Source: an uncultured bacterium
GTDB taxonomy: Bacteria > Babelota > Babeliae > Babelales > Babelaceae
Length of the DNA: 64,000 nucleotides
Direction: 5' to 3'
Assembly (NCBI GenBank): GCA_963819815.1
Contig: CAWFXL010000001.1
Location: 640,001-704,000, forward strand
Shown here: positions 12,001 through 18,000 of the stretch, in pieces
Position numbering within the stretch: the first letter of the stretch is position 1
Layout of the letters: every line of letters begins with the position of its first letter
Program-made: the position numbers

Positions 12001-15000
12001 GAACAGGCATCCAACATTAAAAAAGAGGGCATACTTTAAAAGAAGCGCAGGAATGTACCGATGGGTATATCCAACACCAAGTGCAATGATAGCCACGGGA
12101 AATATGAGAGAGAGGCCGAATAGCACAAGCGAAAGGACCGTATTAAGGCACATAAACGACATGGCTTCTTGCATGCTCATTCCTCGGCAGTTCAAAATAG
12201 TTCACTTAGGCAATAACAATATTTATTATTATATCATTTTTTTAAAATATCAACAACAATCAGGCCCCTTTTCTCAAGGATCCCTTTTCAAGGTCCTCAA
12301 GGGCCGAAAGTAATCGATCTACATCGTCTAAAGACGAATACCCATAGAAGCTCACTCGTACCGATGCATCAATACCTAAACTCGCATGAAGAGGCTGAGC
12401 ACAATGATTTCCTGCTCGAACACAAATCAACTTTGTATCAAGAAAGGCTGCAATATCATGAGCATGAGCCTTTGAGCTCACAAAACTAACCATATGGCCA
12501 GACCGAGCAAGCTCTTCTTTTGGCCCTAGAATGGTGATACTGGGAAGCTTTGTAAGACCTTCAAGCAAACGAGCACATAGGGCAGCTTCATGCTGTGCAA
12601 GCTCTTCAAAAGAGATTCTGTAAAGGTAGTGTATAGCTGCTTCAAGGCCAATGGCCTGCGCAATGGGTGGCGTTCCCGCCTCATACCTTAAGGGTGCTTT
12701 TGCTACCTGATAGTCATGAAAAGAAACCGATTGAACCATGCCACCACCAAGCTGATAGGATGCGACTTCTGGCTGTACTTGACGAGCAATATAGAGTACC
12801 CCAATACCCGTAGGGCCAAGCATTTTATGACCCGAAAACACCACAAAATCTGCTCCCAAAGCATTCAGTACCAGATGCGTGCGCCCTGCTGCTTGGCAGG
12901 CATCTACCAGAACCTTCGCCCCAACTGCTTTTGCATGTGCGATGATCAAAGGCAGATCTACCTGGGTACCGAGTACATTCGACGTATGAGTAACTGCCAC
13001 GAGCTTTGTTTTTGAGGTTAGCATCGCTGCATAAGCTTCATAATTAAGAACGCCCCGAGCATGTAAGGGAATATATTTAACCACACACCCTTTTTCTGCC
13101 TCCAAACGCAGCCAAGGAAGGATGTTTGCATGGTGCTCAAGCTCTGAGATAATAATTTCATCACCGGGTACTAGCTGCTTTGCAGCCCAGCTTGAAGCAA
13201 TCAGATTAATACCCTCGGTAGCCCCTTTGGTAAAAATTATTTCATCAGGTTGAGCCCCACAATAGACAGCTACAGAGGTTCGTGCCTGTTCATACTGTGT
13301 CGTAGCTTCCTCAGCCAGGGTATAAATACCTCGATGCACCGGAGCATTGTGCGTACTGTAGAAGGTTGTCAGAGCTTCTATAACCTCAAGAGGCTTCTGC
13401 GTGGTTGCAGCATTATCTAAGTAGCTTAAAGCCTTGTGGATTGTAAATAAGGGAAAGTCTTTTTTGGGAAATATCATTAAGAAATGCCTCCATAGGTCAA
13501 AGGTACCTTAAATGACCCTATTATACAAGGGTACTTTCCCCCCAAAAGCCGCCTAGAATTTCCAAAAACCACCAATCAATAGCAGTTTTCGATGATTACT
13601 AGGTTAATACATACGTCTAGCAGCCACCACCACCCCCTGCCAAAAAACTTGGACCTCTCCAGATTCTTTGATTCGCTCGTGCCAAAGGCATATTGCCCAC
13701 CAGGGGATCCTATTTGAAAATATTATGATTTTATGATATGCTCTTATAGAGCAAATAAATAAAAAAGGGAATACTCTATGAAAACGTTAAAGCGACTTTT
13801 TAAACTACTTCTTATATGCCTTTTCAGTGCGCAGTCGCAGGTCAACTGGCAGCTTCGTGCCATGAATGTAGATGCACAAGTGCTACAAGAAAATCAACCG
13901 GAAAACAATCCAGTTCTGCCAGAAGGTGTTTTCGCACTACCAGGAAGTCCAGGCAAGTCAAAAAATGGCTGGCATATCAGGAACATTTCAAACCAAGAAC
14001 TCTACGCAGCCTGGTATCTTTTTAAAGATCAACCAAACGGTGTATGGACTCGTATTGATGAACAAATGCACATCCTAAAGTGCGATGAGGAAAAACATAT
14101 CCCCTTTCCCGATAGGCCTAACCTGGAAAAAAGATTCTTCGAGTTCAATCCTCAAAGGCGATTACTGGTCAGCACCAATCGGCATATCCATGCTGATGAA
14201 ATTAAAGTAGATGCCGAAGGGAACCTTCCCCAAGGGATTGTAGCCTTTTCGCAGCATGACCTGGGGACATTTCAAGGCAAATGCACCTTACTTGTTACAC
14301 AGAATGGCCCAGAAGTTCGCCTATTAAACAAGGATATCCGATTAAATAACACAACAAGCAAAGAACTCTATGCCGCCTTATATGATGTAGAGTTACAGGA
14401 TGGAACCGCTACGAAATGTGACTTAGATCAAAAGCTATCGCCACAGCTCAGTGCCATTCTTAAATTACCTCAATGGGGCCTAAGGTTGCAGAAATCTAAG
14501 AAAATCATTCTGCTGCTCTCTGAGACTAAAGAAAAACTACAACCAAAAATGGCCCAGCAGGAATGGTCCAAACTTATCAATAAATCATTTGAATCATCAA
14601 ACTGGTATGATTATTATTGGGTGGGGTCGTATGATATTATTATGAGTGTTGCGGGACACTACTCTATTGTAGGGCAAGGCGGAGGATTCTTCAATGCATG
14701 CCTCCGATCAATTGGGGATATCAATCCCTTTACGGTTAGAGAAATAGAGAATCTTGAAAACAAGCTGCAAGCAGCCCCCCTACCAGAAGCAAATCCTGAT
14801 GTCGTGGTTACAACAGGAAAAACATCAAACTTACAGAGAGAAAAAGCCTATCTTGATGAGCGCATCAAGATAGTACGAAAAGCTTTGAATGACCTTATCA
14901 ATGATCCAGAGTATATGCTTGACGCTGAAGAAGCACCCCCTACGGTAGCCTTTGTTTTTTCAGGCGGCGGCATTCGTGCTCTTACTGCAACTACAGGCTA

Positions 15001-18000
15001 TCTCAGAGGAGCTGATAATGATGAGGGTGGAAATATCTTTAACTGCTCAACCCATATGATGGGTCTTTCTGGATCAACATGGGCAATCAATACCCTTGTT
15101 GCTTCAGGCATGAGGCCTAGTGAATTTGCAGAAAAACAACGGACCAAACTCGGAAAAGATATTAAACAGCTCTATTTTGAGCTGATTAATGACAGTATCG
15201 ATTACAGGAAACGCCGTTTTATGCAAAGTCGTTATAATCAATATACAGGGATAATTGGGAACTATGGCCATGCCCTTGGTAATGCCCTATGTAAGGATTT
15301 CTCGGTCAATGGAAAGCAAACCCATGATATTACCCTCTCTGACCTACAAGCTCATCTTGAAAAAGCTGAGTACCCCTTACCCATAAGTGTTGCCACATAT
15401 TCAGGTGAAACTGACACCTTAAGGACCTGGTACGAGTTCAGCCCTTATACGGTAGGTACTGCCCAACATGGCGGAGGATGGGTCGATACAAAATATTTTG
15501 GCTCACATTTTAAAGCTGGCAGTCTTCAGCAAGCCATTCCAGAGCTTCCACTTACCTATTATTTTGGAGTATGGGGATCAGCTTTTGCCCTTGCACCGCA
15601 AGATATAGCTAAGTCATCAACCCTAGGCGGCATTGCCGCGTATACTGTCAGTACATTAAGCTGGCTATCCAATCAGATTTGTGCACTTATGGCACGAAAG
15701 GTCTCAAAGACCGAAAGTGATAGACTCACCGAGGCACATATAGCGAACTTCTTCTATCAGATGAAGGATGGAAACGGTATGCATAGCATATTGGCGAATA
15801 AAGAAACAATTCCTCTCATTGATGGCGGAATTACCAAAGACGCCTCTCATCGGCACAACTTCGCTTCAGTCCCTGCACTTTGCCGAGAGATTGACGTTCT
15901 CATAATGTGTGATGCACATGAACATCCTAATAAGGATAAAGCATCTCACTTGGTAGCCGCTGCCAAAGAAGCTCGTCGCCTTGGGTTACCCTTCCCCGAA
16001 ATAAAAGAGGAAGGACCTCAAGCAGAAGCCCTCAAAAAGCAGGTCTCCACGCTCATTATGCCGACTCATGATAATGAACCAATGGTACTCTATATGACCA
16101 TCAAAAGGAACGCCATATATGATGAGAAGATAAAAGAGAACCTACATGAAGGATTTGATCCAGATTCAAGTGCTCCTTTTAAAGGTGGGAAACATTTTAC
16201 TCCCACGGTCAACTTTAGTTATACAGAGGAACAGTATGACCTTCTTACAGGCCTATCTGAAGAGATCTTTATGCAAAGTAAGGAGCAGATAAAAGATGCA
16301 CTTAAAAAAGCCATTAAAAGAAAAAGAAGCGCTCGTAAAAAAGCGTAGACTATTTTGCACAAAGGCGTACAATAATTTCTGAAGGGTATGCATAGTAGAT
16401 GTATAACCGATTTCGGGAGTTTTCAATATGGACTATCGACTATCCCTTATTTCTCTTATATGGATAGGTACTCTCTGGAGTAGTCAAACAGCAGTAGTCG
16501 TTCCTATCATTAAAGAGCTTGCAACAACTTGTGCATCTGAGACTCATGAAGTATCAGATCTTTTAAAAACTTTCTCTAAACTTCCTGAACCCGTTCAAGA
16601 GCAGCTCATCACAACTGATTATCTCAGTAAAGGCTATGTAGAATCCAAAGGTCTCATAAATGCAAAACCGCTGTTTATCGCAAAGACTGAAGTGGTCGAA
16701 CTTAAAAGCCCGTACGATGCCCACGGTCACAGGCGACCAACGCGTCACCCTTTGAACCCTTTTATCATAGGTCAAACAGAAAAAGAGCCTGTGTGCTTTG
16801 CCTACACCTACGATGCTGTAGTAAAAGTTCCCAAAGAAGAAGCGTACTTTGTTCCCCATTTTTTTGATCACTCCACCGGCAAAAAATATTTGATGCACCC
16901 TGATCATGCCAATGAAGATTCAGTGCGTCAGTTCATAGGGCCTAATAAACATGGAGTCATCGTATTCTTCGATCATAATGAAGGCCAGATGCATATTGGG
17001 AGACTCTATGAAGAGATATACAATCGCAAGGCTTCCTGTTGGGATCCTGAATGCCATAAGGCAAAAATGCTAGAAGGCTTCAATCGGCCTGACCTTGTCA
17101 ATGATTTCGCACCTGAGTTTGATCCCGCCGATCCTGTTACAGCAATTTCGCTGGATGCTGGAGAATTAGGCGAACCAATCGATGTCTCTTCCCATGATGC
17201 CCGCACTTTGGTGAAGGTGCTCATATATGGCTATGTACAGCATCTTTATAAGAATTATATCTTAGAGGGAAGGAAATCCGGCCGTGTGTTGCTTCATGAG
17301 TTCAACGAACGCGCAATGGGCTTATGTAACAGTTTTCTGTTTACTCCAAACCTTTCTACTAAGGAACTCCCTGTGCATCTAGAAGGTTCGGCAAGAGATC
17401 TTATTCTCGGCAAGGATCGATCAACTGCATGGATCCTCGATGGTCGAGCTTTGTATACCTACAGCATACCAACAAAAAAACAAACGACCGTTTGTACACT
17501 TCCCAATCTGGGATGCCGACAAGAGAGTGTCAAGGCAAGTCCGGATTATGAAAAGAACGATACGTCTGAAAAGATCACACGCTTTATCCTCGCTCCGGAT
17601 GAACAGTATGCACTCCTTGGAGGAGATCAAGGCTCGGTATTGTTAGTCGATGTTGCGAGCAACAATTGTCATGTGATTGAAGCGATGTCCGGTCATGCGA
17701 TTGTAGATATGTGGTGGAGTGAAAAAAATCGCATCGTGCTATTAAGTAGATCTGGAGTGGTTAAAGCCTATACTCTTAAGATCGGTACACAAGATGCGTA
17801 CGTAGAAACACTCATGAATGGTAACCAAAGTAACGAACGTGCAACAGTTTCTCAAGAATCCACCCAAGACGAAAATAGTACATCAGCTATACACAAACCT
17901 CGAATACAGCTCGCAGGTAATGCACGCCAAATTAATCTTACCAAAGATAATGTAGTTGCCTGGATACTCGACAAAGAAGCGCTCTATACCTATAGCCTAA

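Follow-up and report, generated by a model that had tools for sequence, protein, structure and literature searches.

The gene g00573 lies in a window of 64,000 nucleotides (positions 640,001 to 704,000 of contig CAWFXL010000001.1, GenBank assembly GCA_963819815.1) from an uncultured bacterium of the Babelaceae, and it encodes a genuine cPLA2-type (PLA2_B) domain protein, by both family membership and fold. Its "unknown" N-terminal region consists of two copies of a beta-sandwich module of about 115 aa, which is new here. We consider it reasonably likely that the protein is an exported, catalytically competent Ser-Asp acyl-hydrolase that cuts host glycerophospholipids, with the modules docking it and the lipid being supplied to the bacterium. 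A true cPLA2-type enzyme, of a kind seen elsewhere mostly in animals and fungi, is unusual in bacteria; to our knowledge, the other bacterial effectors known to attack host lipids are of patatin type.

13778..16348, + strand: coding sequence of g00573, cPLA2-type (PLA2_B) protein and putative acyl-hydrolase, 856 aa, ATG to TAG, frame intact

Family membership, fold and catalytic residues

The Pfam profile PLA2_B (PF01735) aligns over its positions 1-333 of 491 with residues 390-716 of g00573, scoring 96.9 bits (E 1.3e-27), where the curated gathering threshold is 23. In a six-frame search of the genome with the same profile the gene scored 98.5 bits. Among PDB sequences, phmmer found cPLA2 alpha (E 5.7e-24) and cPLA2 delta (E 7e-22). 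The AF2 model (pLDDT 79.9, pTM 0.78) reaches a pLDDT of at least 90 over most of residues 360-600, and its top Foldseek match is 1cjy_B (E 1.1e-25, TM 0.66 by target), with 5iz5 at E 4.9e-25. Model and matches show the cPLA2 alpha/beta-hydrolase-like fold with its cap region, and the nearest solved relative in both sequence and predicted fold is human cPLA2 alpha. Residues 604-648 of the model form a flexible segment, perhaps a lid. An NCBIfam search with g00573 returned no family. A patatin assignment was rejected because there was no Patatin (PF01734) match at E<=0.01, and patatin-type fold matches were found only at E 1.7e-3 or weaker.

14945..16345, + strand: catalytic domain, residues 390-856 (Pfam match 390-716; 701-849 aligns with cPLA2 alpha and delta)
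14960..14980, + strand: SGGGIRA, residues 395-401, with oxyanion-hole glycines G396-G398 and Arg400, from alignments
15062..15076, + strand: GLSGS, residues 429-433, nucleophile elbow with Ser431, from alignments
15821..15829, + strand: D682-G-G, catalytic aspartate motif, from alignments

Seven positions (G396, G397, R400, S431, G432, S433 and D682) do not vary across 36 aligned Babeliales homologues, nor across a set of 32 sequences to which one animal and one fungal protein belong. The SGGGIRA motif is invariant or nearly so in both sets, and GLSGS aligns with GLSGSTW of 1cjy. These residues, together with Pfam, phmmer and Foldseek, uphold the cPLA2-type catalytic domain proposed in the earlier note, whose PLA2_B figures (E 1.3e-27, 390-716), motif positions (GLSGS from 429, aspartate motif at 682) and list of relatives at E<=1e-10 (the protein itself, six unnamed proteins and one each from animals and fungi) we obtained again. 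On balance, g00573 encodes a real lipid acyl-hydrolase that is probably active and probably exported.

Distribution of the family

The PLA2_B family occurs in 204 of the 261 genomes of the order, which in the genome set used is the whole phylum; 57 of 261 have no match. It is present in 148/189 high-quality genomes and in 110/145 genera, in 33 of 40 genomes of the bacterium's own family and, besides the source genome, in all nine of its own genus. These counts exceed the floors given earlier (181/260, 30/40 and 8/9) and justify calling the family a lineage hallmark; 14 control genomes gave 0 matches. The gene family might also be of use as a phylum marker. Tandem arrays are common, and copy number varies across the 261 reduced genomes.

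We also scanned genome contigs with a two-motif back-translated pattern, which yields the matches listed and not a census. Among those listed, a full-length PLA2_B domain was present in 0 of 17 non-Babeliales loci, as in 0 of the 14 control genomes. Four weak non-Babeliales matches, borderline between patatin and PLA2_B over only about 60 profile positions, were left out as outgroup. At least 10 strong loci sit in records titled 'Pseudomonadota' or 'Epsilonproteobacteria', and all four that were checked are Babeliales genomes. The same pattern gave 0 matches in viral contigs.

A new module in front of the catalytic domain

13946..14308, + strand: beta-sandwich module copy A, residues 57-177 (AF2 model and profile)
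14312..14659, + strand: beta-sandwich module copy B, residues 179-294 (pLDDT about 90)
14675..14944, + strand: helical linker into the catalytic domain, residues 300-389, of which 353-389 already align with cPLA2 alpha and delta

A search of 1.84 billion representatives gave just 13 relatives of the N-terminal region; one is the protein itself, and PLA2_B is present in 11 of the other 12. An iterated profile of the module found 1-3 copies on 49 proteins, and in the loci examined the catalytic domain was present in 44 of 44 module-bearing ORFs. The module is thus a new domain family, found only on these phospholipases. The profile gave nothing below E 1.2 against PDB sequences, and members had no Pfam match at E<=1, so that the earlier description of this region as belonging to no known family stands. 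Within the genome, the module was not detected in the paralogue g00557 (E 0.07).

The region could conceivably be a very divergent C2 domain. There was no Pfam match to C2 (PF00168) in g00573 at E<=0.01, and the C2A-C2B pair of synaptotagmin reached a Foldseek probability of only 0.14-0.25 and was absent from the best 50 VIA rows. The best VIA match to the module had Z 7.3 (rmsd 2.9, 86 aligned), with a transthyretin-like fold at Z 6.9, and Foldseek matched the N-terminus to the PepT1/2 extracellular domain (E 5e-5, TM 0.2-0.3). These are only generic beta-sandwich matches and give no clue to function. Scores for the N-terminal part in the ESM Atlas (0.83) were at chance level. A docking role for the module is our guess; the module may show a new means by which a lipase is directed to a membrane.

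N-terminus and export

13778..13837, + strand: Sec-type signal-like N-terminus, residues 1-20 (K2, K5, R6, K9; core L10-A18; A-Q-S before Q21)

The start of the protein, MKTLKRLFKLLLICLFSAQS, reads as a basic n-region followed by a short hydrophobic core, with small residues in positions -3/-1, in line with the signal-like start noted earlier. The AF2 model has a lone helix at 2-30, followed by a disordered stretch at 23-47. A crude custom heuristic called a signal peptide with a predicted cut near residues 17-20, and found a signal-peptide-like or TM-like start in 31 of 35 full-length homologues. A first version, which overlooked g00573 while marking 283 of 631 background ORFs, was dropped. 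The one retained discriminates poorly, flagging from about a third up to 302 of the 631 long ORFs of this genome, and signal peptides are given for 44% of C. destructans CDS (PMC6561590), so that in this phylum such a call is weak evidence. The genome has four secretin ORFs and two GspE-type ATPases, and T2SS parts with two gspD are reported for all 7 TM6 genomes compared in PMC4776705. We infer export of g00573 from its signal-like start.

Paralogues and gene neighbourhood

Three copies with catalytic motifs had been described, and all three are where they were placed. The paralogue g00915 (967 aa) has GLSGS at 542, DAGI at 798 and PLA2_B at E 5.7e-24; g00557 (900 aa) has GLSGS at 395, DAGV at 734 and PLA2_B at E 7.2e-17 in two partial stretches. 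By the crude heuristic, the N-terminal hydrophobic segments of both are TM-like, with 19 residues.

12260..13477, - strand: sufS (class-V aminotransferase, Pfam), left flank of the insertion
13714..13742, + strand: promoter-like TTGAAA-17-TATGCT with TG, 36 nt upstream of the ATG
16428..18428, + strand: neighbouring ORFan, 666 aa, hydrophobic start, internal repeat of about 150 aa, weak sub-threshold beta-propeller matches
18400..19536, - strand: sufD (SUFBD core, Pfam), right flank of the insertion

The gap between sufD and sufS is variable, and is occupied here by g00573 and the co-inserted ORFan, which is probably co-transcribed with it across an 80-nt gap. The start codon is preceded, at a distance of about 9 nt, by the purine-rich sequence AAGGGA. 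The promoter-like site is weak evidence, as 12 such sites occur in the region against 10.7 expected from shuffles. Within the genus, PLA2_B copies share 37-42% identity, against 58-64% for SufS. As a divergent copy seen in its own genome only, and lacking a close orthologue, g00573 may be dispensable.

Evolutionary origin

Two unrooted three-clade trees, sampling Babeliales, animals and fungi, place the Babeliales proteins beside, not inside, the animals or fungi. In the first they lie on one side of a branch with SH-aLRT 96; in the second the same separation has UFBoot/SH-aLRT 84/86, and fungal PLA2_B proteins form a separate clade (100/100). GC and GC3 of g00573 are native. The earlier suggestion that the gene was probably taken from a eukaryotic host is not borne out by this composition and by the family's own clade in both trees.

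A wider scenario, which we regard as possible but tentative, is a single ancient gain of a eukaryote-type cPLA2/PLB, followed by acquisition of a Sec signal, replacement of C2 by the new beta-sandwich targeting module, tandem duplication, and secretion for host-lipid acquisition (acyl chains, lysolipids), vacuole remodelling or egress. The family would then be the missing lipid system of Dependentiae/Babelota. In a bolder variant, early eukaryotes may have received the gene from an ancient parasite resembling Babelota, a direction compatible with the unrooted three-clade tree.

Proposed function and its alternatives

The Dependentiae occur widely; they parasitise protists obligately and have hardly any metabolism of their own. 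From family membership, catalytic residues, fold, module, distribution and gene context we infer a substrate, a host target and a physiological role as follows. A Sec-type signal would take the protein across the inner membrane, from where the genome's secretin and GspE-type machinery, or vesicles, could carry it onward. The two modules, standing at the place of the C2 domain of animal cPLA2, would probably attach it to the surface of its target. Cleavage of acyl esters of host glycerophospholipids, a predicted phospholipase A/B or lysophospholipase activity of the cPLA2/fungal-PLB family, would then rely on the GGG oxyanion hole, Arg400, Ser431 and Asp682. It would release fatty acids and lysolipids, damage or remodel host membranes and provide lipid for a bacterium without fatty-acid synthase.

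Ketoacyl synthase gave 0 matches in this genome, against 14 of 14 controls; the genome has one PlsC-type acyltransferase and one AMP-binding ligase. PLA2_B as a substitute for lost fatty-acid synthesis is not supported by co-distribution at the family level: it occurs in 51 of 54 genomes of families that keep a FabF-type synthase against 152 of 206 in the rest, and families without PLA2_B (f5, 0/7; f7, 0/4) also lack this synthase. The scavenging prediction thus failed, PLA2_B being as frequent or more so where the FabF-type synthase is kept.

Might these proteins instead serve the bacterium's own envelope? A housekeeping enzyme, periplasmic or anchored by an uncleaved N-terminal helix, could remodel or detoxify the cell's own phospholipids and lysophospholipids. 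This would suit the TM-like paralogue N-termini called by the crude heuristic, and the near-universal presence of the family independently of fatty-acid synthesis is as expected of a housekeeping function. We nevertheless find it unlikely, since fast divergence within the genus relative to SufS, variable copy number with common tandem arrays, the variable insertion spot of g00573 and the absence of a match in 57 of 261 genomes are more to be expected of an accessory or effector family than of a core envelope enzyme. A transacylase or acyltransferase, building for example bacterial lipids from host lysolipids, would use the same Ser-Asp chemistry, in a bacterium that lacks a fatty-acid synthase and has a PlsC-type acyltransferase, and some animal family members and fungal PLB mainly move acyl chains between lipids. 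Sequence features do not separate the two activities, and we give this reading a rather small chance.

The remaining alternatives are very improbable. An anti-phage effector, or a weapon aimed at competing microbes, comparable to the patatin-type CapV/CapE phospholipases of CBASS, could be read into weak fold matches to CapE and CapV (E 3e-3 to 1e-1), but g00573, its two paralogues and the adjacent ORFan matched 0 PADLOC families, g00573 has no cyclase or sensor gene next to it, and its putative export signal is ill-suited to a cytoplasmic abortive-infection effector. That g00573 is a catalytically dead binding protein or a decaying gene, which the missing close orthologue and the two short Pfam stretches of g00557 might suggest, is hard to credit with an intact frame of 856 codons, native composition, catalytic residues all kept in three copies and a confidently modelled catalytic domain.

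Relation to known systems

Yeoh et al. (2016) call it unknown how TM6 bacteria obtain host lipids (PMC4776705). Their Table S5 lists 'Lysophospholipase catalytic domain' groups in 6 of 7 TM6 genomes (8 copies, including Babela massiliensis) and six further such genes in other groups. As this label is the Pfam description of PF01735, these groups, matched by label alone, are probably the same family. In the main text, phospholipase, lipase, patatin and PLA2 have 0 occurrences, and the groups are listed without domain analysis, phylogeny or a link to the study's own host-lipid question (PMC4776705). The earlier note had found nothing on the family in print; it was probably already there in 2016 as near-core, though without comment. 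A near-universal, multi-copy phospholipase family with putative export signals is now a concrete candidate for that question. Babela massiliensis can be grown in amoebae and carries a gene under the same label, which makes experiments feasible.

ExoU of Pseudomonas and VipD of Legionella, delivered to eukaryotic host cells by type III/IV systems, are likewise bacterial phospholipases with a Ser-Asp dyad and the same structural superfamily. By analogy, g00573 probably works like such effectors. In contrast to it, they belong to PF01734, and g00573 has a putative Sec-type signal; its Foldseek matches to patatin-type VipD, CapE and ExoU reach only E 1.7e-3 to 2.5e-2, and for ExoU/VipD some 20 orders of magnitude separate them from the stronger cPLA2 matches.

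Human cPLA2 alpha and delta (group IVA/IVD; 1CJY, 5IZ5/5IXC) share with g00573 the Pfam family, GGGxR, GLSGS(T)W, D-x-G and a beta-sandwich region before the catalytic domain, but identity in structural alignment is only 17-18%. The human enzymes are cytosolic, whereas g00573 has a putative export signal and, in place of a Pfam C2, two copies of an unrelated-looking module. Its Ser-to-Asp stretch spans 251 residues, against about 320 in cPLA2 alpha. Secreted fungal PLB is a virulence factor, and fungal PLA2_B proteins (lysophospholipase/cPLA2-like; Mucoromycota, Asco- and Basidiomycota) are of the same family, many of them C2-less and 600-800 aa long, with a signal-peptide-like start in 24 of 77 by the crude heuristic. 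They differ from g00573 in forming a separate clade, at 23-28% identity, and in lacking the module.

In the ESM Atlas, the catalytic part of g00573 falls into mixed PLA2_B/patatin clusters, which we treat as leads only.

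The cPLA2-type enzyme g00573

Our analysis fully reproduced the observation on g00573, which is real, and its assignment to the cPLA2-type enzyme family is secure. The gene lies at this position:

13778..16348 (+), g00573, an unbroken frame of 856 codons from ATG to TAG

The lipase domain PLA2_B (PF01735) matches residues 390-716 over profile positions 1-333 of 491 (E 1.3e-27, 96.9 bits for a cut-off of 23), the same E value and span that the earlier note had given. No NCBIfam model matches the protein. Among sequences of solved structures, g00573 comes closest to human cPLA2 alpha (1cjy, E 5.7e-24), then to cPLA2 delta (5iz5/5ixc, E 7e-22), with weaker second aligned stretches in the C-terminal third. 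In these alignments SGGGFRAM of the human enzymes stands opposite SGGGIRAL, and GLSGSTW is identical on both sides.

Thirteen residues are invariant in 36 full-length Babeliales homologues, namely E355, G396, G397, R400, S431, G432, S433, W435, P556, D682, N694, R703 and D712 (g00573 numbering). Adding a cPLA2 zeta-like protein from turtle and one protein from Phycomyces to the alignment leaves the oxyanion glycines, arginine, serine and aspartate among them invariant. We take their equivalents in cPLA2 alpha to be Gly197/198, Arg200, Ser228 and Asp549, whose roles come from the structural literature. An AlphaFold2 model built from the 36-homologue alignment (mean pLDDT 79.9, pTM 0.78) retrieves cPLA2 alpha as the top Foldseek match in the PDB (E 1.1e-25, TM 0.66 by target), followed by cPLA2 delta. 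The patatin-type proteins VipD, CapE, PlpD, ExoU and patatin come only at E 1.7e-3 to 1e-1. Hence, g00573 is a true cPLA2-type enzyme, and we reject the idea that it is a patatin merely filed under PLA2_B.

A six-frame search of the genome (1.64 Mb, 88% complete) recovered all three PLA2_B loci that had been described, and the frames, lengths and motif positions of the two paralogues were confirmed: GLSGS at 542 and DAGI at 798 in g00915, GLSGS at 395 and DAGV at 734 in g00557. In GC and GC3, the three genes deviate by no more than 0.6 sd from the long ORFs of the genome. The paralogue g00557 (C1:634000-636702) sits 3.3 kb to the left of the window, upstream of g00573 by 17 kb, and has the longest branch of the gene tree (2.01).

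A module dedicated to these enzymes

The region before the catalytic domain, residues 1-390, had been said to belong to no known family. This is borne out at the sequence level, and we can now add that the region contains a repeated module. The predicted models show two beta-sandwiches in tandem, one spanning about residues 57-177 and the other about 179-294. An exhaustive phmmer search of residues 1-345 against 1.84 billion representatives found 13 proteins at E<=1e-3 (7 at <=1e-10). Eleven of the 12 non-self relatives bear PLA2_B, albeit in one of them (P0018) as a weak match below the cut-off (15.1 bits), and the twelfth is a fragment of 431 aa. An iterated profile from the second copy identified 85 segments on 49 proteins of the compared set: one copy in the forms of 616-746 aa (families f3, f18, f20 and f21 of the order Babeliales), two or three in most forms of 830-1060 aa. 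Across 120 loci, all 44 ORFs bearing the module also carry the catalytic domain. Conversely, 44 of 154 ORFs with the catalytic domain have the module, a lower bound, since in many loci the N-terminus is truncated. In the genome studied here the module is found only on g00573 (2 copies) and g00915 (3 copies). The first 325 residues of g00557 also contain an internal repeat, one that escapes the module profile (E 0.07).

Sixteen aligned segments share the pattern I.V.N.T...LY.A.YY ... RP.R ... L.FS..K..LK ... G..FYI. Their profile has no match in Pfam and nothing below E 1.2 among PDB sequences. Structural comparison gave the extracellular domain of PepT1/2 (Foldseek E 5e-5, with TM of only 0.2-0.3) and, in VIA, a best Z of 7.3 and a transthyretin-like match at Z 6.9; all of these are generic sandwiches. 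Animal cPLA2 enzymes have a C2 domain at the position of the module. None was detected in g00573, though a very divergent one may be present.

Distribution in the phylum and beyond

PF01735 scores above the cut-off in 204 of the 261 genomes of the order (148/189 of high quality, 110/145 genera), including 33/40 of the family of this bacterium and 9/9 of its genus besides the genome itself, against none of 14 control genomes. In the genome collection the order equals the phylum, since a phylum-level search returns the same 261 genomes. These figures support and strengthen the claim that the enzyme is a hallmark of the phylum. Absences are clustered (f5 0/7, f7 0/4, f19 2/8), and the matches in 7 of the 16 f2 genomes are all weak (E 1e-6 to 1e-9). 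Many genomes have tandem arrays, such as three genes in 4 kb on contig C20 of genome G143, or pairs (G198, G183, G133, G186, G187, G208, G119, G146, G219 and G184).

Beyond the phylum, we searched one genome per species for a back-translated pattern (GGGxRA, 23 aa, GxSGxxW). It occurred in at least 126 stretches, and 80 loci were scored with a Babeliales catalytic-domain profile. Strong matches (>=95 bits) were found at 63 loci, of which 31 are titled Babeliales, Dependentiae or TM6, 22 "bacterium", and ten "uncultured Pseudomonadota" or "Epsilonproteobacteria" (L042, L044, L045, L079, L082, L087, L092, L093, L097 and L114; 314-599 bits). The titles of these ten look mislabelled: the four that were checked (L042, L045, L079, L092) coincide in contig, coordinates and score with genomes of the order, and the six genomes behind seven of the ten measure 1.0-1.5 Mb. 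Four loci matched weakly (43-51 bits), in Marinicella and in Myxococcota, Polyangia and Flavobacteriales MAGs; their genomes span 3.4-9.5 Mb, only the first ~60 profile positions align, and Patatin scores as well or better. The other 13 are chance pattern matches, mostly in GC-rich genomes. The reported near-absence from other Bacteria is thus consistent with our data, as none of the 17 non-Babeliales loci among the matches listed, a biased sample and not a census, has a full PLA2_B domain. An Oceanobacter protein (P0060) has a partial match (34 bits). No viral contig had the GGGxRA/GxSGxxW motif pair.

The earlier note had found no paper on the family in this phylum by title or abstract, and no mention of phospholipase in the Babela paper. 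Judged by the abstracts listed, no paper matching Dependentiae and phospholipase concerns PLA2_B enzymes; TM6, phospholipase and amoeba together gave nothing relevant, and nothing bacterial was among the matches listed for PF01735/PLA2_B. Three papers, on Chromulinavorax, on Babela and on the comparison of TM6 genomes, never use the words phospholipase, lipase, patatin or PLA2 in their main texts. The note's statement on the Babela paper stands for its main text, but the family probably figures in Table S5 of Yeoh et al. (PMC4776705), as an ortholog group labelled "Lysophospholipase catalytic domain", the Pfam description of PF01735, with 8 copies in 6 of 7 TM6 genomes, Babela massiliensis among them. 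Six more genes bear the same label, and five of the total are in one genome. Its near-core, multi-copy status was therefore probably recorded in 2016, and never discussed. Beyond that table, the new findings are how widely the family is distributed, its apparent limitation among bacteria to this phylum, an N-terminal module of its own, a distribution independent of fatty-acid synthesis, and the accessory, rapidly evolving nature of single copies.

Origin of the Babeliales enzymes

A eukaryotic donor had been proposed. We built catalytic-domain trees from 30 genome loci, 3 NCBI-named Babeliales, 19 unnamed database proteins and 17 named eukaryotic proteins (2 animal and 15 fungal, no protists); 15 of the latter were picked among 120 of 241 matches, and the turtle and Phycomyces rows (P0007 and P0009) come from the database relatives of g00573. 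In the first tree (69 rows, 520 columns, LG+G4, quick search) one branch (SH-aLRT 96, length 0.31) separates the eukaryotes and 15 fungal-like unnamed rows from all Babeliales and P0005, P0006, P0008 and P0010. For the second, 25 rows were removed, seven long-branch or divergent and the others near-duplicates or redundant in well-sampled clusters. In this unrooted tree (44 rows, LG+C20+F+G4 with PMSF, careful search) fungi (100/100), animals (100/100) and Babeliales (84/86) join at one node, with a single origin of the Babeliales clade in 82% of bootstrap trees. Hence, in a protist-free and unrooted tree, the Babeliales enzymes do not fall inside the animal or the fungal clade, and there is no sign of a recent transfer. 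Transfer from a eukaryote to the ancestor of Babeliales would explain the distribution more parsimoniously; on these sequences, the enzymes form an old, separate clade for which a eukaryotic donor is only a candidate.

Within the Babeliales gene tree, family labels cluster (12 changes against 17.5 when shuffled, 0/200 shuffles as low; 29 labelled rows), and f1, f17, f18 and f21 are each spread over several clades, a pattern in keeping with ancient paralogy and mostly vertical inheritance.

Lipid supply, export and function

The genome has no match to a ketoacyl synthase, found in 14/14 control genomes, so that this bacterium must take acyl chains from outside; it encodes one PlsC-type acyltransferase and one AMP-binding ligase. 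The same gap is described for TM6 by Yeoh et al., who call the mechanism unknown (PMC4776705). The published lack of fatty-acid synthesis is not phylum-wide, because FabF-type synthases occur in 52/261 Babeliales genomes (f17 33/35, f18 12/12, f20 3/4, f15 2/2, f12 1/1). If PLA2_B only compensated for a lost synthase, lineages that keep the synthase should be without it. Yet, by family tallies, it is present in 51/54 genomes of these five families versus 152/206 elsewhere, and f5 and f7, which have no PLA2_B, also lack the synthase. Mere compensation is therefore not supported. Lipid scavenging may be one outcome of the activity but does not account for the distribution, which leads us to favour a general hydrolase of host phospholipids, which would have both membrane-remodelling and nutritional consequences. 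We rank lower a role in envelope housekeeping, a transacylase activity, a dead protein, and a defence effector, the last having no PADLOC match.

The N-terminus of g00573 (K2, K5, R6, K9, a core from L10 to A18, and A-Q-S ahead of Q21) reads as a putative Sec signal, and the AlphaFold2 model shows it as a lone helix before a disordered stretch. Signal- or TM-like starts were assigned to 31/35 full-length homologues by an ad hoc heuristic that discriminates poorly, since 302/631 long ORFs of the genome and 25/77 eukaryotic PLA2_B members are also positive. This high background agrees with the signal peptides reported on 44% of the CDS of Chromulinavorax destructans (PMC6561590). Transport past the inner membrane is plausible, as we infer from four secretin ORFs and two GspE-type ATPases in this genome and from the T2SS components and two gspD genes reported in all seven TM6 genomes (PMC4776705). 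Export and host targeting are reasonable suppositions. Outside the window, at G000:C1:22164-22663, one secretin match falls in two adjacent pieces, one with an internal TGA, which may reflect a frameshift or a damaged gene copy.

A fast-diverging copy in a variable spot

The closest relative of g00573 in the tree is g00915 of the same genome (100/100; 45-47% identity in the catalytic domain). Its best matches in the genus are 37-42% identical, against 58-64% for SufS, and its best database relative reaches 38% over the full length and 48% over the catalytic domain. The gene and an ORFan lie on the plus strand between sufS and sufD, both on the minus strand:

16428-18428 (+), 666-aa ORFan directly downstream of g00573, hydrophobic at its start and without a paralogue in this genome
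13478-18399, sufD-sufS gap, a variable insertion spot in the genus (loci L035-L040), 0.9 to 4.9 kb

The ORFan and sufD converge, with an overlap of 29 nt at their ends. The ORFan is internally repetitive, residues 316-461 recurring as 493-641 (39.6% identity, E 7e-31), and matches beta-propeller/WD40 families of Pfam only below threshold. None of the six genus genomes examined has a homologue of g00573 or of the ORFan at this site. In four of them the gap spans 0.9-4.2 kb, with unrelated cargo that differs by genome: a 514-aa ORF, ORFs of 543 and 722 aa (the latter hydrophobic at its start and weakly matching propeller families), a 143-aa HTH protein, and small ORFs. In the other two, no sufD lies within 10 kb of sufS. 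Hence, g00573 is a fast-diverging copy present in this genome only, in a variable spot, and its behaviour is effector-like.

The gap of one genus-mate holds a 115-aa ORF with a signal-like start (L040:3970-4314, minus strand). It is not matched by the module profile, and its mature end starts with TIRVNNNT, resembling the start of the module.
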